From an uncultured Oscillospiraceae bacterium (GTDB taxonomy: Bacteria > Bacillota > Clostridia > Oscillospirales > Ruminococcaceae), in contig CASDQY010000058.1 in NCBI GenBank assembly GCA_949282975.1, forward strand, positions 5,699 to 69,698: a stretch of 64,000 bases of DNA, in the 5' to 3' direction. Under the pieces are notes generated by a model, which made no database searches, was not told the origin of the DNA, and was given only the letters and a program-made list of their open reading frames with translations. The translations under genes were made by a program, and so were the position numbers. The stretch's first letter is position 1; each line of letters opens with the position of its first letter. Below, one piece after another: positions 1,968-62,197 of this stretch.

Positions 1968-1968
1968 C

Positions 1969-3240: not shown

Positions 3241-3278
3241 TGACCAAAGGAAGCAAACAAGAAGGAGTGTAAAATCGG

Positions 3279-5247: not shown

Positions 5248-5272
5248 CAACATTGTTTTGAATCGAAGTTTA

Positions 5273-5307: not shown

Positions 5308-5425
5308 GCCAAATGGAGCAGAACTTTACACAATCTTATCCAAATTCTCATTGCATTTCACCGGCCGCTTTTGTATAATAGGGCCAGGCCAAAAGGTCAA
5401 GTTTTGCTTTACAAAGGAGAACCTT

Positions 5426-11983: not shown

Positions 11984-11986
11984 GGG

Positions 11987-21476: not shown

Positions 21477-21875
21477 TTAGTCAAAATTAGGATTAAAGGC
21501 GTAGATGTTTTTCTGGTTGAGCTGGCTCTGAACCCGGTTGAGGCACTCTCCAAACCGTTGATAGTGAACGATTTCCCGCTCCCGCAAAAACTTGATCACA
21601 TCCCGCACATCCGGGTCGTCGGTCAGGCGGAGAATATTGTCATAGGTGAGCCGGGCTTTCTGTTCCGCCGCCAAATCTTCCGTCAGATCGGCGATGGCAT
21701 CGCCGGAAACTGAAAGGGTTTCGGCGGAAAAAGGCGTGCCGGAAGCCGCCTGCGGATAGATGCCGGTGGTGTGATCGACAAAGTAGGCGTCGAATCCGCT
21801 GTCACGAATCTGTTTGGGGGTCAGGTTCCGGGTGAGTTGGTAAAGAACGGCGCTGACCATCTCCATATGGCTGAG
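21477..21875 (-). pseudogene. cotJC: cotJC 3' portion (C-terminal 132 codons) separated from its 5' portion by the prophage
   Basis: LSHMEMVSAVLYQLT...ADLTEDLAAEQKARLTYDNILRLTDDPDVRDVIKFLREREIVHYQRF is colinear with the C-terminal two-thirds of CotJC/Mn-catalase-like proteins. The 13 codons upstream of LSHM derive from the phage arm. Confidence 0.85.
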
Positions 21876-21903
21876 TTCGTGCACACCGAAAAAGTATCCA
21901 TCA
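21860..21903. other. attL (host cotJC half-site + phage arm)
   Basis: The shared core is TC at 21877-21878. The phage arm CCGAAAAAGTATCCATCA (21886-21903) is the perfect inverted copy of 61401-61418. Confidence 0.7.
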
Positions 21904-21946
21904 AAAACCGCCAATCAAAGCGCCGACTGCATTTGCCAGCCGGCTT

Positions 21947-23551
21947 TTATTTTCGAGGGATTTTCGGATACAGGGTGATCTCAAAGCTATCGGGCTTGCC
22001 GCCGTTTTTCAGCCCCTTTTCTTTGACGTACACTACCTTTTCCAGTACGTCCTTTAGCAGATCGTTTTTTTCTTGTGGGGAGGAAAGGCCATCATATACT
22101 TCAAGCAACCGCTCCACTTTAGGGATGATGGTGTGAAAACTTTTTTCTCGTTCCTGTTCGCTTTCCAGTTCCGCTTCACGCTGCCGCAAGGCTTCCTCCG
22201 CATTTGCGATGCGCTCAGATAGGATTTTGGAGCGCTCGAAAAAGGTATCTTTGTCATAGACACCCTGCTCCAAAAAATCATAGGCATTGCTTGCCTGCTT
22301 TTTTAAGGTGTCTATATCCTTTTGTGCTTTTTCGATGGAATTTTCCAAAAAAGGAATCTGGGAGGGGAGGGAATGGCTATCTTTCCCCCAGTGCAGCTTG
22401 TACCCTTCCAGCCAATCGCTCAAAGCTGATATAACCCGCCGCTCCACCAAAGGAAGGCTGGAGCTGACGTTGTGGCAATCAGGGTTGGGGCAGCAAAGAT
22501 ACTCAAATCCGTTCTTCTGTGGCTTTCTGGCTATTTTTTTACCGCACATTCCGCAGATCAAAATGCCGGACAAAGGATTGTTGATAGCATACGGATCACC
22601 GGGCCTTGGGTGTGTGTTTTGCTTGTAAAGCTCCTGTACACGGTCCCAGGTTTCTTCTGACACCAAAGCCGGATGCAGCCCGTCGCATATCTCATACTCA
22701 CCCGGCTTTGAGCGTGGCTGATGGACCACGACTTCCCCGTTCTTCATATGCTTCACACATTTTCGCCACGCCCATCGGATTTTACCCACATAGATCGGAT
22801 TTGCAAGTATATCTCGGATTGACGGGTAAGTCCACTTCCCGCCAGTCTTTGTCTTTACACCCAAGCCGTTCAAGCGCCTTACGATTTCGCAGATCCCGAT
22901 ACGGTGGAATGCCCCAGCGCCGTCCGCCTCTCCATTTGCGTACCAGTCAAAAATCTGGCGGATCACAGCGGCCTCTTCTTCCACGGGCTCCAGAGTGTAT
23001 CCCTTATCACCCTTGATTCGAACCCGGCGGTACCCGTATGGGTCACGGCTTCCAACATACTTGCCCTCATGCACCGATGCAAGCCGTCCACGCTGCAAGC
23101 GGCGGTTGATCGTCTTATACTCACGACGGGACATAAAAAGTCCAAACTCAAAGTATTCCTCGTCGTACTCATTGTTGGGGTCATAAGTTTTCACGGGGGT
23201 GATGATTCTGGTGTCGGAAAACTTAAAAGTCTGAGCCACAATGCCCTGGTCTATCGTATCGCCCCGGGCAAGACGCTCCACTTCCATCACAAGCACACCA
23301 GCCCAAACGCCCTGCTCCACTGCCTGGAGCAGCTTTTGCATTTCCGGCCTTGCGGCGATGGATTCACCGGATACGATCTCTCGATAGATGTGAGTGACGT
23401 TCAAGCTCATCCGCTTGGCCAGCTCCATAAGCGCCTTTTCGTGGCGGGCAAGGGTTTCTCCTTCGCCCCTGGCTTCTGCCTCTGCATCGGCACGGGATTT
23501 TCGCAGGTATAGGCAGTACTGGGCGGATGGATGATAAGATTTGTTTTGCAC
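21947..23551 (-). CDS. Large serine recombinase (phage integrase)
   Basis: N-terminal resolvase domain YCLYLRKSRADAEAE...VLVMEVERLARGD (catalytic Ser in RKSR), recombinase domain, Cys-rich zinc ribbon (CGMCGKK...CCPNPDCHN) and coiled coil. 534 aa. The 3' end lies 69 nt from attL. Confidence 0.9.
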   Translation of the reverse strand: MQNKSYHPSAQYCLYLRKSRADAEAEARGEGETLARHEKALMELAKRMSLNVTHIYREIVSGESIAARPEMQKLLQAVEQGVWAGVLVMEVERLARGDTIDQGIVAQTFKFSDTRIITPVKTYDPNNEYDEEYFEFGLFMSRREYKTINRRLQRGRLASVHEGKYVGSRDPYGYRRVRIKGDKGYTLEPVEEEAAVIRQIFDWYANGEADGAGAFHRIGICEIVRRLNGLGVKTKTGGKWTYPSIRDILANPIYVGKIRWAWRKCVKHMKNGEVVVHQPRSKPGEYEICDGLHPALVSEETWDRVQELYKQNTHPRPGDPYAINNPLSGILICGMCGKKIARKPQKNGFEYLCCPNPDCHNVSSSLPLVERRVISALSDWLEGYKLHWGKDSHSLPSQIPFLENSIEKAQKDIDTLKKQASNAYDFLEQGVYDKDTFFERSKILSERIANAEEALRQREAELESEQEREKSFHTIIPKVERLLEVYDGLSSPQEKNDLLKDVLEKVVYVKEKGLKNGGKPDSFEITLYPKIPRK

Positions 23552-23601: not shown

Positions 23602-24984
23602 TTATTGCGGCGTGAGATTAAAGGTGGCTTCGTGCCGAGTAGAGTAGCTATCATACTCTTCCACGGTCAGCGTAAACGGGCCGGGATTGTCCACGGCGAT
23701 ACACGCCTGAGCATTGCAAGTGGCGCCAACGGGTGTTTCATCGGGATATCTGTCCGTAGGAAGCGGATACGAGTACCCGACCACTCCGGCGGAATCCACG
23801 ATGGTTTCCATATCAAGGTTTATATACAAATCCATGATACTTCCCTCGTAACCGAGATTTGTATAAGTGTAGTCGATGATATAAACTGCGCCGGGGGTCT
23901 TATCGGAAAACTGGTTGCGGTCTGAAGTTTCACTCACGCCCGTAATGGTCAGGCTCCATTGGCCATCTACCGTCCAAGTGTCGCCGATACCATACGTAGT
24001 GGGTTCGGGCGTTTCGTAGGGATTTTCGCTGGTGGCCAAAGCAGTACAAGCGCCATTATCAAATAGGGCGATTACGTAGTTCCTGTCCTGGTCTACCCAC
24101 CCAACCGAAACGAGGCCATAGATATACCCTTCGCTCGTAGGAGAGTAGTCCATACCAAAATCGCCGTCCAGAGCATCCACAAACTCGGTGTAGGACATGC
24201 CCTCCTGAAGCGCCGAAATCTCAATCCGACTGAATGTACCACTGTGCGTAGGCTCCATGTTGTCGATGGCGGTTTGATCAAAAGGATCAGCGTTTTGCAG
24301 AATGTAGTCGGTGATATCCATATCACCATCCCCGTCCATGTCGGTGGTGGCTATACCGTCCGCAGTGATAGTATACGGCTCAAACCCCAGCGCATACACC
24401 GTCACGCCGATAGCTGCCGACAGAAAAACGCAGACGAAAACAAGCTGCACAATCCCCCTACTTTTCCCGATGGGTTTTGCCAGCGCACAGAAAATGCCAG
24501 AAAGAACGCCCATGATAAAAACGACGACGCCGCCGATCAGGGCGATCATATCCAGAACAAATAGCAAGGTCATCAGCCAATCCGGGCGGGAATCCAAAGG
24601 AGAAAAAAGGATCACAATCCCAAAAAGGAAGTACCAAACCGCTGCTGCAGCGATGCCAAAAAAAGAAAGGGAGGAAGCAATGCGGCTTTTGCCGATAGCA
24701 GAAAGGCCGAAGAAAGAGGCGACCATTGGTAAAAGAGTGGCGATGATGAGAGTAACTACGTGGTTGTTTGCGGTTAAAGCGTATAAAGTGGCGGTGGCTA
24801 CCGCTCCGATCAGATTCAGCAGGGCGGTGATTGCCCCAAGCACCCGGGCGGTTTTGATGCGACGCCGCCGGCGATCCATATCGATGGCATTCTGCATCTC
24901 CTGCTGGGGAGAAATCGGCTGAACGGGCTGCACCGGTGGCGGAGCCATTGCGATAGGTGGGGTTTGAGGTTGATTTTGTTCCAT
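23602..24984 (-). CDS. Prophage membrane protein with Pro-rich N-terminus, ~6 TM segments and a DUF4352-like extracellular beta domain
   Basis: TM-rich central region. The C-terminal segment GDTWTVDGQWSLTITGVSETSDRNQF...YIIDYTYTN resembles DUF4352 (Ig-like) domains. Confidence 0.55.
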   Translation of the reverse strand: MEQNQPQTPPIAMAPPPVQPVQPISPQQEMQNAIDMDRRRRRIKTARVLGAITALLNLIGAVATATLYALTANNHVVTLIIATLLPMVASFFGLSAIGKSRIASSLSFFGIAAAAVWYFLFGIVILFSPLDSRPDWLMTLLFVLDMIALIGGVVVFIMGVLSGIFCALAKPIGKSRGIVQLVFVCVFLSAAIGVTVYALGFEPYTITADGIATTDMDGDGDMDITDYILQNADPFDQTAIDNMEPTHSGTFSRIEISALQEGMSYTEFVDALDGDFGMDYSPTSEGYIYGLVSVGWVDQDRNYVIALFDNGACTALATSENPYETPEPTTYGIGDTWTVDGQWSLTITGVSETSDRNQFSDKTPGAVYIIDYTYTNLGYEGSIMDLYINLDMETIVDSAGVVGYSYPLPTDRYPDETPVGATCNAQACIAVDNPGPFTLTVEEYDSYSTRHEATFNLTPQ

Positions 24985-31270: not shown

Positions 31271-32191
31271 ATGAGGGTGGGACTGCACGACGCAGAAAAG
31301 GAGCACTTCCGCCGGCCAAAAACCTTCCCAAATCTGGCCCTGATGAAAATATCAGCCTGGCATAAGGCACAGGGGGATACGGTAGAATGGTGGAATCCAC
31401 TCTTACAGTATGATCGTGTATACTCAAGTAAAGTCTTTGACTTTACACCGGAAAATCCATATTTGCCGCTGGGCACCATCAAGGGAGGGACAGGGTACGA
31501 TATCAAAAGCACTTTGCCGGATGAAGTGGATGAGATGTATCCGGACTACTCCATCTATCCAGAGTGCGACTATGCTATAGGTTTTCTCACTCGTGGCTGC
31601 ATCCGAACCTGCCCTTGGTGCGTGGTGCCGGAAAAAGAGGGCTATATCCGGCCTTATCGGGATTGGCGGCAAGTCGTGAGGAAAGACACCAAAAAGCTGG
31701 TACTGATGGACAACAACATTTTGGCCAGTCAGTGGGGAATAGACCAGCTGGAAGAATTGTCCACGACAGACTATAAGATGGACCTGAATCAGGGCATGGA
31801 TGCAAGGTTGGTGACGCCGGAACTGGTGGCGCTCTTTGGAGCGTTGCACTGGATAAAGTACATCCGGTTTTCCTGCGATACCGAATCTCAGGTGCCGTAC
31901 ATCGAAAAAATCTATCAGCTTTTCAAAGAAAAGGGCGTTGCGGTCACAAGGCTTTTTATCTATTTCCTGGTTCGCAGGGATTTGAAAGAAGCAAGCCGGA
32001 GGCTGGAAAAATTGAAGCCGCTGAAGGGTATCAGCATCTACGCACAAGCCGAAATGAACCCGAGAAAAGGAATCCTGCCAACCAAGGGCCAGAAAGAGTT
32101 TGCCAACAGGTATGTGTACGGAAGGTGCTACAAAACAGAAAGCTGGACGGAATACTGCAAAAGAAAAGGAATGGAGGAGTTTCTCGGATGA
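31271..32191 (+). CDS. Radical SAM domain protein
   Basis: CxxxCxxC cluster in GFLTRGCIRTCPWCVVPEKEG. 306 aa. RBS GGAGGAA. Confidence 0.75.
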   Translation: MRVGLHDAEKEHFRRPKTFPNLALMKISAWHKAQGDTVEWWNPLLQYDRVYSSKVFDFTPENPYLPLGTIKGGTGYDIKSTLPDEVDEMYPDYSIYPECDYAIGFLTRGCIRTCPWCVVPEKEGYIRPYRDWRQVVRKDTKKLVLMDNNILASQWGIDQLEELSTTDYKMDLNQGMDARLVTPELVALFGALHWIKYIRFSCDTESQVPYIEKIYQLFKEKGVAVTRLFIYFLVRRDLKEASRRLEKLKPLKGISIYAQAEMNPRKGILPTKGQKEFANRYVYGRCYKTESWTEYCKRKGMEEFLG

Positions 32192-33594
32192 CCCACTACG
32201 GTGACATAAAAACCCTTTCCGGCTCCACCCTTCCCCCGGTGGATGTAATCATCGGAGGAAGCCCGTGCCAGGACTTATCCGTGGCGGGGAAACGTGCCGG
32301 GCTGGCCGGAGAACGCTCCAACCTCTTTTTGGAGCAGATCAGGATTGTAAAGGAGATGCAGGATGCAACAGATGGAGTTTATCCAAGATACATGGTGTGG
32401 GAAAACGTCCCCGGAGCCTTGTCCAGCAACCGAGGCGAAGATTTCCGGCGGGTGCTCCAAGAAATCATCACAATCAAAGAAAACCGCCCTATTCCTCGAC
32501 CTGAGAAGTGGCGGACCAGCGGCTGCATCTTGGGGGACGGATACAGCGTGGCATGGCGAATACTGGACGCCCAGTTTTGGGGAGTGCCCCAGCGCCGCCG
32601 TAGAATCGCACTTGTGGCAGATTTTGCAGGACAATCCGCCCCGGAAATACTTTTTATCCGCCGAGGCTTGCAAGGGAATCCTACGACGGCTGAAAAAGCG
32701 TGGCAAGCCGGTACCGGAGCCGCTGATCCGGGCACTGGAACGGCAGTCTGGGGAATGCGGCAAAACAACAGCGACGATGCTAGAGGCGACGGAATCAAGA
32801 GAGATACCGCCCCGACCTTAAAGGCAGATCATCCGGGGTTGGTGGTGCTGGACAACCATCCGCAAGCTGCTAGGATTGGCATTAGTAAGAGCGGGAACGC
32901 CCAGCCGCTGGATGCGAAGAACGGAACCAGAGGAAACAACGGGCCGCTTGTACTATGCCTTGCCGGAAATGTGGCGGATCGAGCCAGCCACCAAAACGGA
33001 TGCGGCGTGACAGAGGGCACATCCTTTTCTCTGACGGCGACCGATCATCATATACTGTGCATCGGAAACGGCCAGAAAAACCAAAGTATCGGCAGCGTGG
33101 CGGAAACGCTATCCACCATGCACGATCAACTGGCGATTTTTGTTGACTGCCGAAACGGGACCGAGGGCGACACAGCCCAAACCATAACCGGCGGAAACGG
33201 CGGGCGGGGATACTCCCTCAACACACAGCCGGTGATCCACCGACAATCCGGCCTATGGCGGATTACACCCCTTGAGTGTGAGCGGTTGCAGGGATACCCG
33301 GACGGTTGGACGGATATCGGTGATTGGGTGGATGATAGGGGTAGAACCCGGAAATCCAGCGATGCAGCCCGGTACAAAGCACTGGGAAACAGCATTGCAC
33401 TTCCGCCCTGGAAATGGGTTCTCAAGCGCATTTCCGCCCAGTTCGAGCGGGATGCCACCATGGGGAGCCTGTTTGACGGGATCGGCGGATTTCCTCTGCT
33501 GTGGGAGCAGCTCAACGGGAAAGGTAGCTGCCTTTGGGCAAGCGAGATAGAGCCGTTTTGCGTGGCGGTGACGAAAAAACGATTTAAGGGGTGA
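32188..33594 (+). CDS. DNA (cytosine-5) methyltransferase with circularly permuted motif order
   Basis: ATGA overlap with the previous stop. Motif order is III/IV (HYGDIK..GGSPCQDLS), VI (WENVPG), VIII (QFWGVPQRRRR), long TRD, IX (ITPLECERLQGYPDGWT), X (LGNSIALP), then I (LFDGIGGF) and II (WASEIEPF) at the extreme C-terminus. Confidence 0.8.
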   Translation: MTHYGDIKTLSGSTLPPVDVIIGGSPCQDLSVAGKRAGLAGERSNLFLEQIRIVKEMQDATDGVYPRYMVWENVPGALSSNRGEDFRRVLQEIITIKENRPIPRPEKWRTSGCILGDGYSVAWRILDAQFWGVPQRRRRIALVADFAGQSAPEILFIRRGLQGNPTTAEKAWQAGTGAADPGTGTAVWGMRQNNSDDARGDGIKRDTAPTLKADHPGLVVLDNHPQAARIGISKSGNAQPLDAKNGTRGNNGPLVLCLAGNVADRASHQNGCGVTEGTSFSLTATDHHILCIGNGQKNQSIGSVAETLSTMHDQLAIFVDCRNGTEGDTAQTITGGNGGRGYSLNTQPVIHRQSGLWRITPLECERLQGYPDGWTDIGDWVDDRGRTRKSSDAARYKALGNSIALPPWKWVLKRISAQFERDATMGSLFDGIGGFPLLWEQLNGKGSCLWASEIEPFCVAVTKKRFKG

Positions 33595-34344: not shown

Positions 34345-34680
34345 ATGTTTAACGAACAAGAAAAATCCATTCTTCAAAAAGCCATTGAAACCTACGGCGT
34401 GAATGCGCAGATTGACATCGCCGTGGAAGAAATGGCAGAACTGACCAAGGCTTTGATGAAGCACAGAAGGAATGAAAAATTCAAAAAGGACGATTTTAAC
34501 GCTGCGATAAGATGTATGGCTTCGATCTGCGGTGAGATCGCCGATGTGCTGATCATGCTGGAACAGCTTCAGATGATTTTCGACAACAGGGGGCTGGTGG
34601 AAAAAATCAAAGAAGAAAAAATCCAGCGGCTGGAAAACCGCTTGCGGGAGGCACAAAATGAGCAGTCTGTCCAGCAGTAA
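34345..34680 (+). CDS. MazG-like nucleotide pyrophosphohydrolase
   Basis: All-alpha protein of 111 aa with IDIAVEEMAELTKAL and EIADVLIMLEQL metal-binding helices. Confidence 0.7.
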   Translation: MFNEQEKSILQKAIETYGVNAQIDIAVEEMAELTKALMKHRRNEKFKKDDFNAAIRCMASICGEIADVLIMLEQLQMIFDNRGLVEKIKEEKIQRLENRLREAQNEQSVQQ

Positions 34681-35185
34681 AGCCCGCTCCAACGGCGCCG
34701 CTTTTGAGCAGCTCATCAGCGCCGGATGCCGGTACTACATCAAAAAAGGAATTGCCATCATCCACAAAACCCCGGAACCAATGCACCCCATCCAGCAGAT
34801 GGGCAACGGCCGATTTCTGGCTGCCTACGATAAAAAAGCCCAGCCGGATTATCAGGGCACACTCCGTGGCGGGCGGAGTATCGTCTTTGAAGCAAAGCAT
34901 TCCGAAAACGAGATGTCGCAGGGGCGGATCACCACAGCCCAGTGGGCGGACCTGGACGGACATCAGGCCATGGGTGCGCTGTGCTATGTGCTGGTGTCCT
35001 TTGGCTTTCGGATTTTCGCCATGATCCCCTGGGAGGTGTGGAAAGACATGAAAAGCCAGGTGGGCCGGGTACATCTCAAGCCCACGGATGAGCTGGTAAG
35101 GGCATACCAGGTCAAGGCGGCCGGCGGCGGAATCCTGTTTTTGGACTACTGCTGGCTAAAAAAGGAAAATGGAGGGAAGCCATGA
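34658..35185 (+). CDS. RecU-type Holliday junction resolvase
   Basis: NGAAFEQLI...IHKTPEP...PDYQGTL..GRSIVFEAK is the RecU catalytic pattern. Confidence 0.8.
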   Translation: MSSLSSSKARSNGAAFEQLISAGCRYYIKKGIAIIHKTPEPMHPIQQMGNGRFLAAYDKKAQPDYQGTLRGGRSIVFEAKHSENEMSQGRITTAQWADLDGHQAMGALCYVLVSFGFRIFAMIPWEVWKDMKSQVGRVHLKPTDELVRAYQVKAAGGGILFLDYCWLKKENGGKP

Positions 35186-36491: not shown

Positions 36492-37295
36492 ATGGCAAAA
36501 GGAGAAACCTACGAAGAGTTTGTGGAGAAATTCAAACCCAAAAAGACCACCGATGACTGCTACACGCCGCCGGAGATATACGAGGCGGTAAAAGGATGGG
36601 CGTGTAAAGAATACGGGATTGACCCGGACAGCATCGTCCGCCCGTTTTGGCCGGGCGGAGATTACGAGCACTTTGACTACCCAGAGGGATGTGTGGTGCT
36701 GGACAACCCGCCGTTTTCCATTTTGACAAAAATCTGTGAATTTTACATTGAGCGAGGAATCAAGTTCTTTTTATTTGCTCCGAGCTTAACGTGCTTTTCC
36801 GGGAGAAAAACGATCATGCGGATGAATCACGTGATTTGTAATTGCCAAATCACATATGAGAATGGAGCGGTGGTAAGGACGTCGTTTGTAACAAGTTTTC
36901 GGGGGGGGGGTAGCACTGTTACACAGACGGCTCCGGAGCTTACAAAGCTTATCGATGAGGCGGGGAAAAAGAACCGAAAGAAAGAATTGCCGAAGTATGA
37001 CTACCCGCCAGAAATCGTCACAGCAGCTATGCTGCAAAGATTCGCAAAACACGGATTTGATTTTGAGCTGTCGGATAAGGATTGTACGCCGATTTACACC
37101 ATGGATGCGCAGAGAAAGCAGAAAAAGGCGATATATGGCGGCGGGTTGCTATTAAGCCGGGAAAAAGCAAAAGAAAGCAAAAAGATAAGAGAAAAGATCG
37201 ATGGAGAAAACCACAGTGAGAAAAAAACCTGGGAACTCTCTGACCGGGAATGGGAAATCGTCAAGAGCCTGGGAGAAAAGGAGGATGGGTCATGA
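36492..37295 (+). CDS. Putative phage N6-adenine DNA methyltransferase (NPPF motif) containing a G10 tract
   Basis: ATG follows AAAGGGGAAG. DDCYTPPEIYEAV and catalytic VVLDNPPFSIL. A poly-G run sits at codons SFRGGGS. Confidence 0.6.
   Translation: MAKGETYEEFVEKFKPKKTTDDCYTPPEIYEAVKGWACKEYGIDPDSIVRPFWPGGDYEHFDYPEGCVVLDNPPFSILTKICEFYIERGIKFFLFAPSLTCFSGRKTIMRMNHVICNCQITYENGAVVRTSFVTSFRGGGSTVTQTAPELTKLIDEAGKKNRKKELPKYDYPPEIVTAAMLQRFAKHGFDFELSDKDCTPIYTMDAQRKQKKAIYGGGLLLSREKAKESKKIREKIDGENHSEKKTWELSDREWEIVKSLGEKEDGS
36901..36910 (+). repeat. Homopolymeric G10 tract inside the methyltransferase ORF
   Basis: ttttc-GGGGGGGGGG-tagc is currently in frame (CGG GGG GGG GGT). Confidence 0.95.
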
Positions 37296-37747
37296 TCTAC
37301 AAGAGATGTTCCAGATGCGGCAAGAGAATCCCAAGCGGGACCATCTGCCCTTGTGTGCTGGAAGTCATGGCCAAGAGTAAGCGGGAGCGGGACAGAGCCT
37401 ACGGCCGCACCCGCACCGACACCAGGGAACTGGCCTTTTACGGCTCAGACCAGTGGAGGAGAAAGTCTAAAGCTGTGCGCATCCGCTTCCGCCAGATGGA
37501 TGTTTACCTCTGGCATACCACCGGGCGGGTGGTGGACTGCGACACCGTACACCACATCGAGCCGATCAAAGAGCGATGGGATAAGCGGCTGATGGATAGC
37601 AACCTGATCCCCCTGTCGGAATCCACCCACAAGGCACTGCACAAAAGGATGGAGCGCAGTGTCGCAGAAAAAAAGAAAGTGCAAGCCGAACTACATGAAG
37701 CCGTCCGGCACTGGAAGGCGGTATTCGGTTCGGGGCAGGGGGTATAG
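37292..37747 (+). CDS. HNH endonuclease (packaging-associated)
   Basis: ATGA overlap. N-terminal CSRCGKR..CPC and the HNH core VHHIEPIKERWDKRLMDSNLIPLSESTHKALH. Located just upstream of the terminase genes. Confidence 0.85.
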   Translation: MIYKRCSRCGKRIPSGTICPCVLEVMAKSKRERDRAYGRTRTDTRELAFYGSDQWRRKSKAVRIRFRQMDVYLWHTTGRVVDCDTVHHIEPIKERWDKRLMDSNLIPLSESTHKALHKRMERSVAEKKKVQAELHEAVRHWKAVFGSGQGV

Positions 37748-49842: not shown

Positions 49843-52433
49843 TTCCGGTTCTGTACGAAAAAACCAGCACAAAAACAAATCTGGTGCCAATCGGCGCCAT
49901 GGTGGATGTGCTGTCCTGCCCGGTGAGCAGGGAGCGAAACGGTATCTATGAGGCCACCATGCTCTATCCGAAAGATGGGCAGCTGGCGGAAGAGCTGAAA
50001 ACGGAACGGCTTTTGTACATCAAGCCGGGAGACGATGAAGATCCTCAGCCCATGGAGATCATGACCGTCACCGCTATCAACGACAACACCATCCAAGTGT
50101 ACGCCCAGCATATCAGCTACCGGCTCAGTGGCATGGTAGCTTCTCCGTTTTCGGCGGCCACGGCCACGGAAGCCGCTGCAAAACTGCAGCAGTACATGGG
50201 AGAATTTACACTTACCACCGATATCACATCCGACACGGCTTACAGTCTCACAGTACCAACCGCCTGCCGCTCTGTGCTGGGAGGCATGGAAGGAAGCTTG
50301 CTGGATGTATACGGCGGCGAGTTTGTCTTTGACGGATGGGACGTGCACTGGCGGAAATCCGCCGGAAGCGACCGGGGAGTGCTGATCGCTTACGGGAAAA
50401 ACCTCACCGAAATCAACGCCGTGGCGGATACCACCGGGGTTGTCACCGGCGTTCTGCCCTACTATCAGCAGCAAAACGAGGATGGGAGTACCAGCCTGAT
50501 CATGCCGGATGGTCCGGTGATGATAGCGGACAGCATCATGAGCTATGACCGGATCACCACCCTGGACTGTACAGGCGAGTTTGAGGCAACCCCAAGCGTG
50601 GAGCAACTCCAGCAGTACGGCGCAAACTGGCTGCAAAATCAAACCACAAAAACCACCGACAGCATCACACTGAGCTATCTTGACCTGTACGACCAGGGAG
50701 AAAGCGACGCCATCAAGAGCATGGAGTATGTGCGGCTTTGCGACACGGTGACGGTATGGGACAAGCGGTACAACATACAGCTCACCGCAAAAGTGGTGCA
50801 GATCGTCTATGATCCCATAGCGGAGCGGAATGATACCGTGCAGGTGGGGGAAGCGGTGAGCAACTTTGCGGACACCATCTTGAGCACCAACCAAACGGTG
50901 GACAAAATCCAACAGACCTACCCCTCACGCTGGCAGCAGTCCATGTACGACCTGGCGAGCAAGATCACCGGCCAGACCGACAGCCACGTGATTTTCGTGC
51001 CCATGGAGTATCCATCGGCCATCTTAGTGGCGGAGGATACCGACCTGACTTCCGCCGGAAACAGGGGGCTTTACATCAGCGCCGCCGGTATCGCCGGAAC
51101 AGAGGATTTGGCGGCTGCTTTGCAGGACCCGTCCCTTTTCAGCCTGGCCATCACCATCGACGGCCATATCATCGGGGACCGGATCACCGGCCTGACAATC
51201 GAGGGGAAGCAGATCATCGGGGGGATCATCCGCAACACCGCCGGAACGGTGTATATCAATCTCGACACCGGCGAAGCCTACGTCCCCCGTCTGATCGCCT
51301 CCGCCGGCGGCGGCGTGTACTACGGAATCGAGCAGGGCTCTTTTAACTTATCCGGCGCTGAGTACAGCGGGATGCGCTTTTTTAGGATGATCAACGTGGC
51401 CCCACCCTTTGATAGTCCGGAGGGGGACTACTTCCAGGTACTGCGCACTGCCTCCGGGGCCAGGCTGCGAGCCATCGACCCGGACGGGAACGATCTATAT
51501 CTGGACCTTCTGGGCGACAGCGGCACGGTGTCCGGAACCGGCCCGATCCTCCAGGTGCGGGCGGGAAGCACCAAAAGCACAGTGTTCCAGCTCAACGAGG
51601 ATGGGGATGTGGAGATTCCGGGATATCTGAGAGTGGGAATGAATTCCGGCGTTGGCTCCAACCTGGGGCTGTATGGCGGCCGCATTGAGCGAGGGGGAAA
51701 TTTTGTCTCCCTTACCAACGGCGGCGGCTTTTACGCCCAGCGGCTCAACGGAACTTCCGGCGAAAACGTGGCGTACATGCTCTCCGACGGAACGGTCCAC
51801 GGGATCAACATCACGGGGACGGATATCAGTGCTACCAATCAAGTTTCCGGCGAGCTGGGGGAGTTCACGCAAGTCAGAGCGAGAAGCTTCCGTTTTTCGC
51901 AGGACAGCACCAGCGGACTGGTGCAGTTTGACAACAATGACTTTGGGGTTCTGTACAACGGCACTGTCCATTTTGCTTTTGGCCGCAGTTACAACGGCGT
52001 AAATGAGAGCATCATCCGGCTACCAAACGGGGCCAGCGAGGTGGTAGACACCTATAAAAGCTGGGATTTCCACGGATGGAGCATCACAAACGCCCAGATT
52101 GCCACTTCTTCCGACCGGCGGCTGAAAAAGTACATCGCTGCCAGTAAGGAAAAGGCCCTGCCTATCATCGACGCCATACCCATGCGACAGTATACCTACA
52201 AAAAGGGAGCGCCGGAGTACCTGTCAGAAAAAAAGGTACGCTTTGGAGAAGTGGCCCAGGAGCTGGAAGAAGTCTACCCGGAAGCCGTGATCTACAGCGA
52301 AAAAACCGACGACTGGTATATCGACAAAATCGCACTCGTTGACCTACTGCTGAAAGGCGTGCAGGAGCTGAGTGCGAAAGTCACAAGTCTCGAAGCCGAA
52401 CTAAAAAGAAAGGAGAATGCAAATGCCGGTTGA
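49839..52433 (+). CDS. Tail-associated lysin/Tal-like protein with C-terminal S74 intramolecular chaperone domain
   Basis: The N-terminal prophage-tail endopeptidase-like region begins MIPVLYEK... The C-terminus SSDRRLKKYI...WYIDKIALVDLLLKGVQEL fits the autoproteolytic chaperone domain. Confidence 0.8.
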   Translation: MIPVLYEKTSTKTNLVPIGAMVDVLSCPVSRERNGIYEATMLYPKDGQLAEELKTERLLYIKPGDDEDPQPMEIMTVTAINDNTIQVYAQHISYRLSGMVASPFSAATATEAAAKLQQYMGEFTLTTDITSDTAYSLTVPTACRSVLGGMEGSLLDVYGGEFVFDGWDVHWRKSAGSDRGVLIAYGKNLTEINAVADTTGVVTGVLPYYQQQNEDGSTSLIMPDGPVMIADSIMSYDRITTLDCTGEFEATPSVEQLQQYGANWLQNQTTKTTDSITLSYLDLYDQGESDAIKSMEYVRLCDTVTVWDKRYNIQLTAKVVQIVYDPIAERNDTVQVGEAVSNFADTILSTNQTVDKIQQTYPSRWQQSMYDLASKITGQTDSHVIFVPMEYPSAILVAEDTDLTSAGNRGLYISAAGIAGTEDLAAALQDPSLFSLAITIDGHIIGDRITGLTIEGKQIIGGIIRNTAGTVYINLDTGEAYVPRLIASAGGGVYYGIEQGSFNLSGAEYSGMRFFRMINVAPPFDSPEGDYFQVLRTASGARLRAIDPDGNDLYLDLLGDSGTVSGTGPILQVRAGSTKSTVFQLNEDGDVEIPGYLRVGMNSGVGSNLGLYGGRIERGGNFVSLTNGGGFYAQRLNGTSGENVAYMLSDGTVHGINITGTDISATNQVSGELGEFTQVRARSFRFSQDSTSGLVQFDNNDFGVLYNGTVHFAFGRSYNGVNESIIRLPNGASEVVDTYKSWDFHGWSITNAQIATSSDRRLKKYIAASKEKALPIIDAIPMRQYTYKKGAPEYLSEKKVRFGEVAQELEEVYPEAVIYSEKTDDWYIDKIALVDLLLKGVQELSAKVTSLEAELKRKENANAG

Positions 52434-55400
52434 TGAAACCAACGTCATCGCCAACGTAAAAGCGGATTTGGCACGGGGGACAGTGGAACCGTATCAAGTA
52501 AGCTGCACCCAGTACGATGCAGAGATGCGCCGGATCGCCGTCCACCTGCAACAAAACGGGAAAATCTGGAACATCCCGGCCGGGTACTCCGTCAATGTGC
52601 GGATGAAAAAGGCGGACGGCACCGTAGTATATAACCCCGGCGAAGCTGATGGGAATCTGGCATATATCACCTTGTCCGGCCAGATGTGTATTTTGCCGGG
52701 AACCCAGGATTTTGTGGTGGAGATCGTCAAGGGGGATGATGTGGTGCAGACGGCGCCCATCCGCCTTGAGGTCAAAGCCAACCCCATGCAGGAGGGGGAC
52801 GAAGCCAGCGAAGACGAAAAGGAGACCATCCAGCAGGCGGTGGAGGACGCCCGGGAAGCCGCCGAAGAAAGCCAGACCAATGCCGACCAGGCCTATACCT
52901 GGGCGCAAAACACCCTGACCCTCTATCACCAGACCGAGGACCTGGCGCAGCAGGTAGAGCAAACCGCCCGAAGAATCCTGGGGGCGGATGCCAAAGTGGC
53001 GGCGGTGACGCAGTCCCAGTATGAGGCGCTGAACCCACCCGACCCGAAAACCGTCTATATCGTCACCGGGGACAACCCCAACCCTTACCTCAAAGCCTAC
53101 TATCCCATGACCGCCGACGTGGCGGACATGCTCAGCGAAAAGACCGGCTCCATCGTGGGCGGCGGAAGCTTTTCCGGCGGGGGTTTGCGCACCGCTCCAT
53201 CCGGTACAGTATCCCAGCACCAAAACTACATCCAACTGCCGGATAACCTTTTTGGGGGACTGGAAATCCAGACCAACTCTGGCCTGACCGTCACCATCGA
53301 CGTGATGCCGGATACTACCTGTTCCGCCGGGAACGGGGACTGGGTGCGGCTGCTTAACTTCTACAAGCCGGCCAACGAGCCAGAAGGGACAGCAGAGGGA
53401 GAACTGTATCTCACTCAGGGGTGTGTCGGCACCGCCTACTATGGTGGGACGACCACTCAGGCGCTGGACGCTTCCAAAGCAGGAGCCATCACCGCCGGAA
53501 GTTGGCACACCGTGGCGCTGGTGGTCAGCCCATACGCCGCCGGCGTGGCGGTGTATGTGGACGGGGCGCTCCAAGCGAGCATATCCGGGGGCACGACCAG
53601 CTTACTGGCGCAGATCGCCGATTTTACCCAAAACGCCATCGGCAACTCCCGCTTTGCGGATAACGATTTTGTAGGCCTGGTGCGCAATCTGCGGGTGTAC
53701 AACAAAGCGTTGAGCACAACAGAAATCAGCGACATCGGAACCGCCCCCGCCTGGTCCATCTACTACGGCGGGGCGAAGATGGATGATCTGATCCAGCTGC
53801 AGGAGACGGTCGAAGGGATCATCGGGGGCACGGTAAACATCCAGACCATCCGGGGCGCTTATGGCCAGACTATGGACATCGGACCAGCCAGCATCGGAGA
53901 GACAAATGTTGGCTCCACGTCGAGCGCAAGTGCAGTGAATTTGCGGGCCAGTGTGCTGAATCTGCTGGGCATGGGGCGTGGACCAAGCGCAAGGGACACC
54001 GTGCGGATCACCGGCATGGCCACTCCCACCGCCGACACCGACGGCGCAAACAGGGACTACGTGGATAGCAAGGTGACAGAAGCCACCTCCGGCCTTGCCT
54101 CTACGCAGTACGTAGATGACGCCATCGACGACGCCATTTCTGCCACCTCCAACGCTCCCCGCTATGGCGTCCGCTTTTCCGGCTCCGGCAACTCCGGCAG
54201 CACCGTTACCCGGCTGTATGATGCCGTCGGCCTGACTGCCGCCGTGGGCACCGATACCGCCGGGGCAGAAAACGACTTTGACGACATCGCCCCCTGGTCC
54301 AACCGCCGGCGGTGCTGCGGGTACTGGGACGAGTCAGGCCGGTTTGTGGTCAACGCTTACGAGGGGGAACCGGGCTATGCCACCGATGGAAGCAACGGCG
54401 AGGTATGGGTGGAAAGCTCCCTGTGGTACTACCAGCATACCGTATCCGATGACGGTGTGGAAGAAATCACTATCTCCACCTATCAGTACCCCGGATTCTC
54501 CCCCGCTCCCATCTTTTTGAGCCAGGGAGGACAGGCCCAGCCTTACCTTAAGGCTTACACTGCCGCCTATCCCATGGCCACGGTGGACGGAAAGCCCACC
54601 TCTAGAAGCGGGGTGTTTCCGGGCACATACTCCCTCAACAGCGCCATGACGGCGGCACGGACGGCAGGGGAAAGCTATTGCACCACCACCGTCGGGGAGT
54701 GGTACAGCGACTGGCTCTTGATGGTGGTGGAATTTGCCACCCGAAACTTGCAGTCTATCATGGTGGGAGCCACCCAACTGCCATGGTATACCACCCACAC
54801 CGCTTTGGAAGCGGAAACCAGCGCAAACCGCATTATTATTTCTGCCGCCAATGCCTCCGGCTATGTGGTAGGGCAGACCATCGGCATCGGCACCACCCAA
54901 GGCGGGAACCAGGTCTGCTCCAACCGGCGGATTACCTCCATCGAGACGGTGGAGGACGGAACCGCCCTATACTTCGACGGCGACCCCGTGGACATCGCCG
55001 TGGGAAACATGGTGTACAGCCTGGCCTGGATCACCGGCACCTGTGATGGGGTGCAGTCCTCTTCGGGCTCCTACATCTCCAACACCGGCGGAAAGCATCA
55101 GTGCATCTACCGGGGCAAAGAAAAGCCCTACGGGGACTGCTATGAGTGGTGCTGCGACGTACTTTTCCAGCGCCACGGGGCCGGAACCACTGATGACCCA
55201 TACACCTATACCGCACACTATCTTCCCGACCCCACTAAGTACAGCGGTGGATCCATCACCGAGGACTATGTGCAGCTGGGCTATGGAGTGCCGGAGGCGG
55301 ATGGATACTCCACCGAACTGGGGTTGGATGAGCGGTTCCCCTGGGTCCGGATTCCGTCGGCGGTGGGCGGCTCCACTACCACCTACTACTCCGACTACTA

Positions 55401-55551
55401 CAACTATCCACGCTCCGCCGTCGCAGCGGGGCGTCTGGGCGGCAACTGGGCCTCCAGGAGCTACGCCGGTGCGGCGTACTGGGACTGCTACAATGCCCCC
55501 TCCATCTCAGGGGTGAACAACCGTGCCCGCCTTTCTTTCCACCGCACCTAG
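52417..55551 (+). CDS. Tail fibre / receptor-binding protein: BppU-like N-domain, LamG-like domain, C-terminal lectin-fold variable region (DGR target)
   Basis: The N-terminus resembles baseplate upper protein. The LamG-like segment is SWHTVALVV...FVGLVRNLRVYNKAL. The last ~40 codons form the VR, matched by the downstream TR. Confidence 0.85.
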   Translation: MQMPVDETNVIANVKADLARGTVEPYQVSCTQYDAEMRRIAVHLQQNGKIWNIPAGYSVNVRMKKADGTVVYNPGEADGNLAYITLSGQMCILPGTQDFVVEIVKGDDVVQTAPIRLEVKANPMQEGDEASEDEKETIQQAVEDAREAAEESQTNADQAYTWAQNTLTLYHQTEDLAQQVEQTARRILGADAKVAAVTQSQYEALNPPDPKTVYIVTGDNPNPYLKAYYPMTADVADMLSEKTGSIVGGGSFSGGGLRTAPSGTVSQHQNYIQLPDNLFGGLEIQTNSGLTVTIDVMPDTTCSAGNGDWVRLLNFYKPANEPEGTAEGELYLTQGCVGTAYYGGTTTQALDASKAGAITAGSWHTVALVVSPYAAGVAVYVDGALQASISGGTTSLLAQIADFTQNAIGNSRFADNDFVGLVRNLRVYNKALSTTEISDIGTAPAWSIYYGGAKMDDLIQLQETVEGIIGGTVNIQTIRGAYGQTMDIGPASIGETNVGSTSSASAVNLRASVLNLLGMGRGPSARDTVRITGMATPTADTDGANRDYVDSKVTEATSGLASTQYVDDAIDDAISATSNAPRYGVRFSGSGNSGSTVTRLYDAVGLTAAVGTDTAGAENDFDDIAPWSNRRRCCGYWDESGRFVVNAYEGEPGYATDGSNGEVWVESSLWYYQHTVSDDGVEEITISTYQYPGFSPAPIFLSQGGQAQPYLKAYTAAYPMATVDGKPTSRSGVFPGTYSLNSAMTAARTAGESYCTTTVGEWYSDWLLMVVEFATRNLQSIMVGATQLPWYTTHTALEAETSANRIIISAANASGYVVGQTIGIGTTQGGNQVCSNRRITSIETVEDGTALYFDGDPVDIAVGNMVYSLAWITGTCDGVQSSSGSYISNTGGKHQCIYRGKEKPYGDCYEWCCDVLFQRHGAGTTDDPYTYTAHYLPDPTKYSGGSITEDYVQLGYGVPEADGYSTELGLDERFPWVRIPSAVGGSTTTYYSDYYNYPRSAVAAGRLGGNWASRSYAGAAYWDCYNAPSISGVNNRARLSFHRT
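55427..55541 (+). repeat. DGR variable region (VR)
   Basis: 115 nt, collinear with 55618-55732. Nine of the ten mismatches lie opposite TR adenines. Confidence 0.85.
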
Positions 55552-55559
55552 CGGGGGAT

Positions 55560-55578
55560 CGGGGGCGGCCAGCCCCCG
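55560..55578 (+). promoter_or_regulatory. GC-rich hairpin just 3' of the VR
   Basis: CGGGGGC-ggcca-GCCCCCG, 9 nt after the stop codon. Confidence 0.5.
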
Positions 55579-55617
55579 GAAAACAAAAAATTGGCGACCG
55601 GGATTTGATGTGCGGCA

Positions 55618-55732
55618 CGGGGCGTCTGGGCGGCAACTGGAACTCCAGGGGCAACGCCGGTGCGGCGTACTGGAACTGCAACAATGCCCCCTCCAACTCA
55701 GGGGTGAACAACCGTGCCCGCCATTCTTAACA
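55618..55732 (+). repeat. DGR template region (TR)
   Basis: Noncoding copy of the VR containing 25 adenines, several as AAC triplets in the VR reading frame. Lies 110 nt upstream of the RT gene. Confidence 0.85.
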
Positions 55733-55842
55733 TTTTTGATATTGCACATCATATTCCGTACCACTTGGTAAAAATGCGTCGTAGCGGCCGGGGCTGGTAG
55801 GGCAACCGAACGTCCTGGAGACTTTAAGAAAGACCGTAAAAA

Positions 55843-56997
55843 ATGAAACGTGCAGGAAATCTTTTTGAAAAAATTTGCAGCCTAAGCAACCTGGAAACGG
55901 CGGTGCTCAACGCATCCGCCAACAAACAGAAAAGGAGGCGTGTGCGCTATGTGGTAGAGCACAAAGAGCAGGCCGCCGCCGAAATCCGGCGAATGCTGCT
56001 GGAAGGGACATTTCGACCGGGTCAGTGTCTGAGCAGGGAAATCTACGATCAATCCAGTCATAAGGTAAGGACCATAAACTGCCCGCTTTTTTGGCCGGAT
56101 CAGATCGTACATTGGGCCATCATCCAGGTGATCCGCCCGGTGCTGATGCGGGGGATGTCCCCTTTTTCCTGCGGGTCCATCCCGGGGAGGGGAATCCACT
56201 ACGGGCAAAAGTATATAAAGCGGTGGTTGGCCAGAGATCACAAAAACACAAAGTACTGCTTAAAGCTGGATGTCCGGAAATTTTATCAGAGCATCGACCA
56301 TGACCGGCTCAAAGCCATGCTCCGGCGGAAAATCAAGGATAAGCAGGTACTGGCCCTGCTGGACGCCATCATAGACAGCTATCCAACGGGGCTGCCCATC
56401 GGGTACTACACCTCCCAGTGGCTGGCTAACTTTTACTTGGAAGGGCTGGATCACTACGTCAAGGAGCAGCTTGGTATCAAGTATGCCCTGCGCTATGTGG
56501 ATGATATGGTGCTTTTCGGCACATCCAAACGCAAGCTGCACAAAGCCAGGGAGCGGATCGCCGCATACCTAAAGCCCCTTGACTTGGAACTCAAGGGGGA
56601 CTGGCAGGTTTTCCGGGTGGACAAGCGCCCGGTGGATATGCTGGGCTACCGCTTTTACCGGGATCATGTCACCCTGCGCCGCCGGAACGCCTTGAAAATC
56701 CGCAGGCGGGTGAAGCGGACGCACAAGCGGGGATACATCACCCTACATGATGCAAGGGCCATCCTAAGCAACGTGGGAATGATTACTCACAGTAATTCAA
56801 ATGAGTTTTACAAGCGGTATATTGTACCGTATGTAAATATCAAAAAACTAAAGGAGATGATCAGCCGTGCAGACAGAGAGCAACATCAAGCCGGCAGAAA
56901 TCGAGGTGGAGAAAATCCCGGGCATGGGGGTAGTGATCTGCCGGGAAAACATCACGAAAAAGGTGGGGCCGGAAGGGGATACTGTCTACTCCTATGA
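55843..56997 (+). CDS. DGR-type reverse transcriptase
   Basis: RT motifs include LPIGYYTSQWLANFYL (the DGR-typical I/LGxxxSQ) and the catalytic LRYVDDMVLFG. Confidence 0.9.
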   Translation: MKRAGNLFEKICSLSNLETAVLNASANKQKRRRVRYVVEHKEQAAAEIRRMLLEGTFRPGQCLSREIYDQSSHKVRTINCPLFWPDQIVHWAIIQVIRPVLMRGMSPFSCGSIPGRGIHYGQKYIKRWLARDHKNTKYCLKLDVRKFYQSIDHDRLKAMLRRKIKDKQVLALLDAIIDSYPTGLPIGYYTSQWLANFYLEGLDHYVKEQLGIKYALRYVDDMVLFGTSKRKLHKARERIAAYLKPLDLELKGDWQVFRVDKRPVDMLGYRFYRDHVTLRRRNALKIRRRVKRTHKRGYITLHDARAILSNVGMITHSNSNEFYKRYIVPYVNIKKLKEMISRADREQHQAGRNRGGENPGHGGSDLPGKHHEKGGAGRGYCLLL

Positions 56998-57358
56998 TGA
57001 GTACCGCACCATCACCACCTGGCGGGACAACCTGGCGGAAAGCGCCCGGGCCAACGCAAAAGAGTGGCTGGAAGTCGGCAAAAAGATGGAGTATGACCGG
57101 GCAGCCGCCGAAATCCGGGCAAAGCGGGACGAGCTGCTTCGGCAGTCGGACAAGCAGCTTTGCATCGACCGGCTGGGACTGGACACTTCCGGGGGAAGCA
57201 CCATCACCAGCTTTTTGCCCTTTGTCAAGGGGCTGGCGGCAGTGCTTACCGGGGAGTGGGCCGAGTACCGGCAAGCCCTCCGGGACGTGCCCCAGCAGGA
57301 GGGCTTCCCATTTGACATCACCTGGCCGGTTCCGCCGGAAGAGGGGGCGGACGTTTGA
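56867..57358 (+). CDS. XkdW/tail-fibre-assembly-like protein
   Basis: GTG follows AAGGAG. The C-terminal W..YRQALRDVPQQEGFPFDITWPVPP pattern resembles phage tail fibre assembly/XkdW proteins. Overlaps the RT 3' end by 131 nt. Confidence 0.5.
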   Translation: MQTESNIKPAEIEVEKIPGMGVVICRENITKKVGPEGDTVYSYDEYRTITTWRDNLAESARANAKEWLEVGKKMEYDRAAAEIRAKRDELLRQSDKQLCIDRLGLDTSGGSTITSFLPFVKGLAAVLTGEWAEYRQALRDVPQQEGFPFDITWPVPPEEGADV

Positions 57359-61352: not shown

Positions 61353-61400
61353 TTAAAGCAGAATATTTGTGCACGATGAACAAATTATTGTTTTACGTAA

Positions 61401-61445
61401 TGATGGATACTTTTTCGGAGTATATTCTTCCACTCCAATATCGGT
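61401..61445. other. attR (phage arm + host cotJC half-site)
   Basis: The phage arm is TGATGGATACTTTTTCGG (61401-61418). The shared core is TC at 61426-61427. Confidence 0.7.
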
Positions 61446-61619
61446 AAGCGCCCCTTTCACCACGCCGTCCCGCATACTGTAACGCTGATTCAGATACCGG
61501 GTAGATGCCCCCATTTCCCCGTGGGGTCCTCCTAATTGGCTGACGATGATCTTGGCCAGGGCGGGGTTGGGCGTCTTGATCTTGACCGGATACTGTAATT
61601 TCTTTTCGTATTGGAACAT
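61425..61619 (-). pseudogene. cotJC: cotJC 5' portion (N-terminal 65 codons)
   Basis: MFQYEKKLQYPVKIKTPNPALAKIIVSQLGGPHGEMGASTRYLNQRYSM...LTDIGVEE is the conserved CotJC/Mn-catalase N-terminus. The frame then continues 23 codons into phage DNA to a stop at 61353. Confidence 0.85.
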
Positions 61620-61622: not shown

Positions 61623-61874
61623 TTATTCTCCTCTTTCCCAGGGCCAGGGATTGTCAACCCAGTCCCAGCGGTCGGTGCTGTGGGGCTGAGTGCGGACTAA
61701 GGTGCCGTATTGCTTAGAATATTCCTCCATGGCCTGTTGGCGCATCGCCAGGTGCTTTTGGTAAAACTCCAGAGCCTGGGAATCCTCCGGATGGGTGTCC
61801 AGATAAAGGGCCGTTTCGGTGAGCACGAAGTCGCAGACCTGGATTCGGTGAAGCAAAACCTGCTTTTGATTCAT
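61623..61874 (-). CDS. cotJB: Spore coat protein CotJB
   Basis: LLHRIQVCDFVLTETALYLDTHPEDSQALEFYQKHL...DNPWPWE is the CotJB signature. Confidence 0.9.
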   Translation of the reverse strand: MNQKQVLLHRIQVCDFVLTETALYLDTHPEDSQALEFYQKHLAMRQQAMEEYSKQYGTLVRTQPHSTDRWDWVDNPWPWERGE

Positions 61875-62047
61875 CTGTCATCACGCTCCCCGATAAAGGG
61901 TTTGTCCAACTGGGCAAATAGAGTTCCTCGGCTGAGCGCTACCTCCGGGGTATAAATCTCCTCCCAGGATTGGGGAGGAATAAAAGCCGCCGCTAAAGTG
62001 GGGAAGGGGCATCCCTCCCAGGATGTGGCAGCATTTTGCTGTTTCAT
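61871..62047 (-). CDS. cotJA: Spore coat-associated protein CotJA
   Basis: ATG at 62047 follows AAAGGAG. ...AAAFIPPQSWEEIYTPEVALSRGTLFAQLDKPF fits the CotJA pattern. Overlaps the cotJB start. Confidence 0.8.
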   Translation of the reverse strand: MKQQNAATSWEGCPFPTLAAAFIPPQSWEEIYTPEVALSRGTLFAQLDKPFIGERDDR

Positions 62048-62197
62048 AAGGATATCTCCTTTGCATTTTCTGTCGCCCCAAAGAGCTTGGGACAATACCA
62101 GTGTATGCGAAGAAAGAAAAACAAGTGAGAAAAACACTTCCTAAAGATAGAATCTGCCTTCCTTTTATGCTATAATGAAAAAAACCGTTCGGAGGCG

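Follow-up and report, generated by a model that had tools for sequence, protein, structure and literature searches.

Evidence for a complete Avd-less diversity-generating retroelement in the tail region of a prophage of an uncultured Oscillospiraceae bacterium

The diversity-generating retroelement (DGR) of Bordetella phage BPP-1 has the gene order mtd-avd-TR-brt, and its template repeat (TR) is the source of adenine-specific changes transferred to a variable repeat (VR), which encodes the C-terminal ~40 amino acids of a receptor-binding tail fibre. Avd occurs in ~74% of DGRs, and 26-29% are without it (Wu et al. 2018, PMC5758913). In the same survey, the accessory-free "Architecture A" accounts for 29% of DGRs, a phage-associated Lineage 3 without avd was noted, and an Avd-independent mechanism was inferred (PMC5758913). 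The present study concerns a stretch of 64,000 nucleotides of contig CASDQY010000058.1 from an uncultured Oscillospiraceae bacterium, referred to below as the window. The late or tail region of a ~39.5-kb siphovirus-type prophage in this window very probably carries a complete Avd-less DGR with the order target-TR-reverse transcriptase (RT). A DGR aimed at the C-terminus of the tail fibre had been proposed in the original prediction, made from the letters and their open reading frames (ORFs), and the interpretation is borne out by the adenine-specific mismatches, the C-terminal VR, the non-coding TR, the RT signature, the hairpin downstream of the VR and the variation found in relatives.

The remark in that prediction that DGRs are a known class holds in a narrower sense as well, the element being an Avd-less phage DGR of gut Firmicutes, a populous group that has already been catalogued. 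Compared by description, its gene order, the lack of avd and the single adjacent target are those of Architecture A1/Lineage 3 of Wu et al. (PMC5758913), whose members are likewise phage-associated, come mostly from Firmicutes and show at most one non-A substitution. Laminin_G_3, found in the window target, was also seen in their targets of the C-type-lectin (CLec) class CLec3, whereas their f1 targets are ~2000 amino acids long and contain CotH, and the window target has 1044 residues and BppU_N. Among cultured phages, Lactobacillus phage LBR48 and Butyrivibrio phages Arawn and Idris encode RTs that are 42-49% identical to the window RT. The Arawn cassette consists of a tail protein, a gap of ~375 nt, the RT, small ORFs and an endolysin, and its annotation contains no avd; the target proteins and hosts of all three cassettes differ from those of the window. 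The differences from BPP-1 are larger. The window element is without avd, its VR and TR lie 76 nt apart, its RT is ~30% identical to the Bordetella phage RT (bRT) over the aligned region, and its target combines BppU_N and laminin G (LamG) domains, whereas Mtd is built of a beta-prism and a beta-sandwich.

The repeat pair was located as follows.

55427-55541, plus strand: VR, encoding the last ~40 amino acids of the 1044-residue fibre (GRLGGNWASRSYAGAAYWDCYNAPSISGVNNRARLSFH..), placed by alignment
55618-55732, plus strand: TR, non-coding and intergenic, with 25 adenines and nine AAY codons in the VR frame

The two repeats align without gaps over 115 nt at an offset of 191 nt and differ at ten positions. 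Nine of the differences fall on TR adenines (55641, 55642, 55653, 55674, 55680, 55696, 55723, 55729 and 55730), and the hypergeometric probability of at least nine of ten mismatches on adenine, with 25 adenines among the 115 TR bases, is P = 2.5e-6. The coordinates and the nine adenine mismatches listed in the original prediction proved exact on realignment, and the codon changes it had named in the core of the repeat (AAC to GCC, TAC, GAC, TAC and ATC) are right in the VR frame. Five of the nine AAY-templated codons are substituted in the VR. The mutagenised part of the TR, with its nine AAY codons, one AGG and one TAC, corresponds to ~4.6e11 possible protein variants; this would give the prophage roughly 10^11-10^12 variants of the receptor-binding protein with which to change targets. 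The three 3′-most adenine mismatches (55723, 55729 and 55730) are identical in every related VR, all of which read ..RARLS[F/Y]H.., and hence are not fresh variation; they represent fixed differences between VR and TR, of the type that separates the sequence for initiating mutagenic homing (IMH) from IMH*, or strongly selected states, and not recent diversification. No further TR-like copy was found in the 64-kb window. The TR ends 110 nt upstream of the RT gene, and for annotation the element is a textbook-quality DGR, every part of it being placed to the base.

The enzyme of the element is encoded directly downstream.

55843-56997, plus strand: DGR RT of 384 amino acids, Pfam RVT_1, with R76, the motif I186-GYYTS-Q192 and YVDD at residues 218-221

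The ORF and the motif positions confirm the RT with LPIGYYTSQ and YVDD that had been read from the translation. The closest solved structure is PDB 8ub7 chain A (E 5e-29), ahead of the RTs of group II introns and retrons. As judged from the residue numbering of the alignment (I181, Q187, R74), 8ub7 is the Bordetella phage bRT, and R76, I186 and Q192 of the window RT align with R74, I181 and Q187, respectively. The signature [I/V/L]GxxxSQ, as opposed to QGxxxSP, is characteristic of DGR RTs, and the bRT residues have been named as promoting adenine mutagenesis (PMC7826257). The window RT carries the DGR-type IGxxxSQ in place of QGxxxSP, together with YxDD in the form YVDD, and thus shares with the BPP-1 enzyme both the signature and the equivalents of R74 and I181. 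With the NCBIfam models for group II intron (TIGR04416) and retron enzymes, the RT scored 98.9 and 66.5, far below the respective curated cut-offs of 300 and 235; these models receive the best sub-threshold scores because NCBIfam has no DGR model. No intron RNA or retron msr/msd was matched in Rfam, where the only match was the RT-18 motif described below.

Related loci, designated L001 onwards, were used to follow the variation of the repeats. The close lineage comprises the window, L007 (RT 90% identical) and L001 and L002 (targets 87-89% identical). Across the four VRs, 20 of 22 columns that correspond to TR adenines are variable, against 12 of the 83 other columns (Fisher's test, 2.5e-11), L002 entering the comparison only with the 5′ part of its repeat. 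Half of the variable non-A columns (6/12) match differences between the TRs of the window and L007; each VR tracks its own TR, and this is evidence of TR-to-VR transfer. In L003, L004 and L005, with RTs that are 56-60% identical to the window RT, all mismatches are at TR adenines (15/15 in each). A similar picture is given by the fibre proteins themselves. In two clusters formed at 90% identity, from each of which 15 members were read, entropy reaches 0.77-0.83 bits in the last 36 residues versus 0.04-0.09 elsewhere, and the positions with at least four alleles, about ten per cluster, are all but two within the last 36 residues. A scan of one genome per species showed that at least 547 genomes contain a relative of the RT; they are mainly metagenome-assembled genomes of Clostridia and Bacilli from animal guts. 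The repeat could be scored at 61 loci, whose mismatches fall on TR adenines in 692 of 791 cases (87%) and, at 37 of the loci, without exception.

The locus L002 was dropped as a plain VR variant, its VR being fused to the TR-spacer-RT segment. At 11869-13214 of this metagenome contig (5x coverage), the VR runs into the TR 3′ flank, the spacer and the RT, and the encoded protein ends in ..RARHS*, as the peptide encoded by the TR does. The fusion is either an assembly collapse of the VR onto the TR or a real recombination that deleted 191 nt.

Around the repeats, several DNA and RNA elements were recognised.

55521-55531, plus strand: GC-rich 11-mer CCGTGCCCGCC, with which the mutagenised portion of the VR ends on its 3′ side; TR copy at 55712-55722
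55560-55578, plus strand: GC-rich hairpin with a 7-bp stem and a GGCCA loop, 9 nt past the target stop codon, from the DNA fold
55599-55615, plus strand: 5′ arm of the RNA duplex enclosing the TR, pairing with 55742-55758
55742-55758, plus strand: 3′ arm of the same duplex, abutting the P1 hairpin of RT-18
55759-55831, plus strand: RT-18 RNA, Rfam RF03021 (54.9 bits, with the gathering cut-off at 41.3)

The homology of VR and TR decays past the GC-rich 11-mer, with divergence after 55541, and the 11-mer is presumed, from the likeness to BPP-1, to be the IMH/IMH* boundary. The GC-rich hairpin folds as DNA with -15.4 kcal/mol (z-score -2.5), and a small hairpin spanning the stop codon precedes it. 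Having no T-run, the GC-rich hairpin is not an intrinsic terminator. The structure is kept in L003, L004, L007 and L011; L008, which has no RT, has lost the 3′ arm. The combination of a GC-rich element and a hairpin downstream of the VR is shared with BPP-1, where the counterpart of the hairpin is an inverted repeat, likewise GC-rich, that lies downstream of the IMH (PMC5758913).

The duplex that encloses the TR comprises 16 bp (-21.7 kcal/mol, z-score -3.5) and adjoins the P1 hairpin of RT-18 and an AAAAA run. The same layout, one arm (GGG..) lying immediately 5′ of the TR and the other (..UCC) in contact with RT-18, occurs in most of 29 loci of the clade, with a median of -21.4 kcal/mol and z-scores below -2 in 15 of the 29. 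Six interior pairs show compensatory changes in a 17-locus alignment of mini-constructs, a count that is indicative only, the loci being hand-picked and the constructs artificial. RT-18 consists of the P1 hairpin with a CUUG loop, the AAAAA run and a long stem in which UAGUA and GAAA are conserved, and it ends at the ribosome-binding region of the RT, 11 nt before the RT start. It was found directly upstream of the RT in 31 of 31 loci, including L002, L003, L004 and L007 and all 26 of the sampled genome loci. RNAalifold re-derives its structure from 29 RT-18 hits, and 14 of the 15 pairs show compensatory changes. The global RNA fold of 55600-55850 is no more stable than that of shuffled sequences (z-score -0.1), so only the specific conserved helices are meaningful. 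A scan for promoters and terminators around the TR gave nothing above chance, and co-transcription of the TR with the late operon is plausible.

In BPP-1, the structured RNA between TR and brt is RT-10, as placed by Weinberg et al. (2017), who mentioned other RT motifs in DGRs as speculation only; in the window, the corresponding spacer RNA is RT-18. No paper linking RT-18 to DGRs was found in the literature searched. RT-18 and the TR-enclosing duplex together constitute a conserved RNA module of the clade, which is a mildly new point at the family level. A 2024 preprint described in BPP-1 the "cPRT Stop", a duplex of the TR flanks (13 bp on average) with an adjacent stem-loop followed by adenosines, and the same succession of duplex, stem-loop and adenosines is present in the window. 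The survey in that preprint covered Avd-containing DGRs only and reported an Avd-binding stem-loop. In the window, only 9 nt separate the end of the TR from the 3′ arm of the duplex; thus there is no room for such a stem-loop, which is consistent with the absence of Avd. The RNA module of Avd-less Firmicutes phage DGRs is parallel to elements of the Avd-dependent Bordetella system for which a role in driving cis-priming and termination was recently demonstrated.

Avd itself was sought with Pfam in all ORFs of the prophage, the small ones being packed as pseudo-proteins, and no PF05635-type match was obtained at E <= 0.05; the precomputed Pfam annotation of the relatives contains none either. 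The layout target-TR-RT is typical of the clade, with VR-TR gaps mostly of 60-150 nt and TR-to-RT spacers of ~110-140 nt, and gaps of this size leave no space for avd.

The following course of events may be proposed from these elements and from the likeness to BPP-1. The TR would be transcribed along with its flanks, and the RNA would fold so that the 16-bp duplex (55599-55615/55742-55758) encloses the TR, beside the RT-18 hairpin, the A-run and the long stem. The RT would then copy the TR into cDNA, presumably with priming in cis by the spacer RNA and termination at the duplex, misincorporating opposite template adenines. The cDNA would replace the VR, its homing directed by the GC-rich element and, possibly, by the hairpin at 55560-55578. 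Up to nine asparagine (AAY) codons and a few others would be recoded on the ligand-binding tip, and the altered host range could benefit the phage by tropism switching.

It is conceivable, although we hold it only tentatively and at somewhat less than even chances, that the clade works as a minimal system of the RT and its own RNA, with neither Avd nor another accessory protein. RT-18 and the duplex may then supply the priming, processivity and termination that are given in BPP-1 by contacts among bRT, Avd and RNA. If this were true, the orphan Rfam motif RT-18 would gain a function, and the "cPRT Stop" RNA architecture of BPP-1 would pre-date Avd or be independent of it. The clade is thus a candidate minimal RT and RNA mutagenesis system, possibly useful for engineering.

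The target of the element is the fibre gene immediately upstream of the TR.

52417-55551, plus strand: DGR target, tail fibre or receptor-binding protein of 1044 amino acids, from the ORF and Pfam; Pfam domains BppU_N (residues 27-145), Phage_tail_C (193-217) and Laminin_G_3 (269-438)
54217-55548, plus strand: conserved C-terminal domain of the target, 444 amino acids, delimited by homologues

The Pfam matches to BppU_N and Laminin_G_3 agree with the BppU-like N-terminal and LamG-like domains that had been suspected in this protein. The gene follows those of a tape-measure protein (PhageMin_Tail) and a Prophage_tail/Peptidase_S74 protein, and the target is therefore a distal tail or receptor-binding protein. 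The 444-residue domain has hundreds of ~60%-identical homologues, borne by BppU_N proteins of 660-767 amino acids, with the C-terminal consensus VGGxWxxGxxxGPxxWxCxxAPSxxxVxxRARLSYHR, in which the x positions are hypervariable. An AlphaFold model of this domain (model 1) had a mean predicted local distance difference test (pLDDT) of 62.5, with 46-52 at the VR tip. Its only significant PDB matches were three chains of TaqVP (E 3e-6 to 2e-5, probability 1.0, template modelling (TM) score 0.34-0.42), and among predicted viral structures it matched tail collar fibers of gut phages, including crAss-like ones, and FGE-sulfatase-like and TvpA-like entries. A second model, of the last 310 residues with 120 sequences (pLDDT 62.9), did not recover TaqVP and had no significant PDB match. 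By sequence, the target domain gave no Pfam match to a CLec-type fold, and a profile search of PDB sequences was empty.

TaqVP (PDB 5vf4), the CLec-fold variable protein of a DGR of Thermus aquaticus, resembles the target in having a C-terminal VR of ~40 amino acids with non-variable tryptophan residues and a last beta-strand that is invariant and encoded by the IMH. The two proteins have no detectable sequence similarity, and the TM score of 0.34-0.42 was obtained with a model of moderate confidence. Of the suggestion that the C-terminus adopts a CLec fold, the TaqVP match of model 1 speaks in favour, and the loss of this match in model 2 and the lack of a sequence match speak against. It seems that a C-type-lectin fold at the fibre tip is likely but not established, with moderate support from modelling.

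Several observations weigh against a complete DGR as read here. One mismatch of the repeat pair is not at an adenine (TR 55650 G against VR 55459 A). The last ~30 amino acids of the RT are an atypical C-terminal extension, a low-complexity read-through tail (..GRNRGGENPGHGGSDLPGKHHEKGGAGRGYCLLL, 56867-56997) that overlaps the next ORF, ORFx, by 131 nt, is absent from the relatives of 351-355 amino acids (L003, L004, L006) and is common only to L007. The CLec match comes from the model with pLDDT 62.5 and was not reproduced by the truncated one. Avd, essential in BPP-1, is absent, so the mechanism outlined above is extrapolated from a different protein complement. The element itself is absent from the collections searched: a collection of 15 billion proteins did not contain the window proteins, and the TR pattern with all adenines set to N had no match in viral or genome collections. 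Any current activity would accordingly be argued through the relatives. The lineage also shows decay: 4 of 13 mismatches of L007, the closest relative, are non-A, and L001 has lost both TR and RT.

Part of these observations would suit a DGR that is real by descent and now inactive, with VR/TR differences of historical origin. The single non-A mismatch, the four of nine AAY codons left unchanged and the unusual tail of the RT could all be read in this way, as could the decay of relatives, namely the four non-A mismatches of L007, the missing RT of L001 and L008 and the frameshifted RT of L011 (4825-6011). However, the RT ORF of the window is intact with all catalytic and signature residues, the TR, the RT-18 RNA, the flanking duplex and the VR hairpin are intact as well, and a 9:1 ratio of A over non-A mismatches is what active DGRs typically show. 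An inactive remnant is therefore considered unlikely, at roughly one chance in five.

The second alternative concerns the ORF that overlaps the 3′ end of the RT gene.

56867-57358, plus strand: ORFx, 163 amino acids, pI 4.74, with Phage_tail_APC (Pfam) in the C-terminal half

ORFx could be a dedicated DGR accessory factor that replaces Avd and is comparable to CH1, which was found only in avd-less DGRs, Lineage 3a corresponding to Architecture E1 (Wu et al. 2018, PMC5758913). It overlaps the RT stop codon in all five close loci with an RT and in about half of the 61 clade loci, it is missing from L001, which has no RT, and its length and pI fit, by description, the 160-169 amino acids and pI 4.7 +/- 0.2 of CH1. 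Against this stand the homologues of ORFx (52% identity) that directly follow the same fibre family in L008-L010, where the fibre is present and both TR and RT are absent, and the many clade members, such as the Christensenellaceae loci, that have TR and RT and no ORFx. Moreover, the C-terminal half of ORFx is the Pfam domain of phage tail assembly chaperones, and Wu et al. placed CH1 and Lineage 3a in Bacteroides, from which alone Lineage 3a is reported. An accessory role is thus improbable, still more so than an inactive element. On account of the chaperone domain, the RT-less occurrence and the absence from many clade members, ORFx is taken to be probably a tail-fibre assembly chaperone, and the TR-RT module is treated as sitting between the fibre gene and its chaperone.

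The weakest alternative, a tandem-like duplication of the 3′ end of the gene that diverged at random beside an unrelated retron or group II intron RT, has in its favour just the presence of a repeat and an RT and may appeal to the sub-threshold NCBIfam scores, but it has next to no plausibility, because simple duplication with random mismatches, named as the competing explanation in the original prediction, is excluded by the mismatch spectrum (P = 2.5e-6) and its recurrence in dozens of independent relatives, the VRs track their own TRs at non-A sites, the RT reads IGxxxSQ instead of QGxxxSP, and neither intron RNA domains nor a retron msr/msd are present.

Two relatives without TR and RT deserve separate mention. 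In L001 (10001-12569), a fibre with a C-terminus of the hypervariable type is directly followed by a holin-like ORF and then a lysin. In L008 (3692-6486), a fibre with a C-terminus of the same type is directly followed by ORFx, and the post-VR hairpin is present minus its 3′ arm. Both loci reflect either the loss of a DGR or a DGR that acts in trans from elsewhere.

The complete Avd-less DGR favoured here resides in a prophage that splits a gene of the host.

21886-61418, no strand assigned: host prophage of ~39.5 kb in cotJC, with a perfect 18-bp inverted repeat at its borders (21886-21903 and 61401-61418; CCGAAAAAGTATCCATCA and its complement)
21947-23551, minus strand: large serine recombinase at the left prophage end
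61353-61619, minus strand: N-terminal part of cotJC, positions 1-67 of the Mn_catalase profile
21477-21914, minus strand: C-terminal part of cotJC, positions 64-198 of the Mn_catalase profile

The genes cotJB and cotJA are intact and lie just upstream of the N-terminal fragment of cotJC (61623-62137, minus strand). The interruption of a sporulation gene, which the original prediction had considered the remarkable feature of this instance, is confirmed by the split of the spore-coat gene cotJC. This gene is already listed among the sporulation genes often used for phage integration, and no link with the DGR is evident. The arrangement recalls skin (sigK) and SPbeta (spsM), in that a mother-cell spore-coat gene, here cotJC, is split by a prophage that encodes a large serine recombinase. 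Excision of the prophage in sporulation might restore cotJC, which would make it an intervening element.

Beside the recombinase, an ORF of 460 amino acids (23602-24984, minus strand) encodes a protein with a Pro/Gln-rich N-terminus and several predicted membrane helices, for which no Pfam or NCBIfam family match was obtained. Further prophage genes code for a C-5 cytosine DNA methylase (32125-33594), a RecU-like resolvase (34658-35185) and an HNH endonuclease (37250-37747) beside the small terminase. As for the related loci, the phage-like contig L002 contains a ROOL RNA (312 bits) and five tRNA genes (4046-4592 and 1105-5798), and a type II hammerhead ribozyme (45 bits) is located at 11738-11803 on the minus strand of L011, the related prophage contig with the frameshifted RT.

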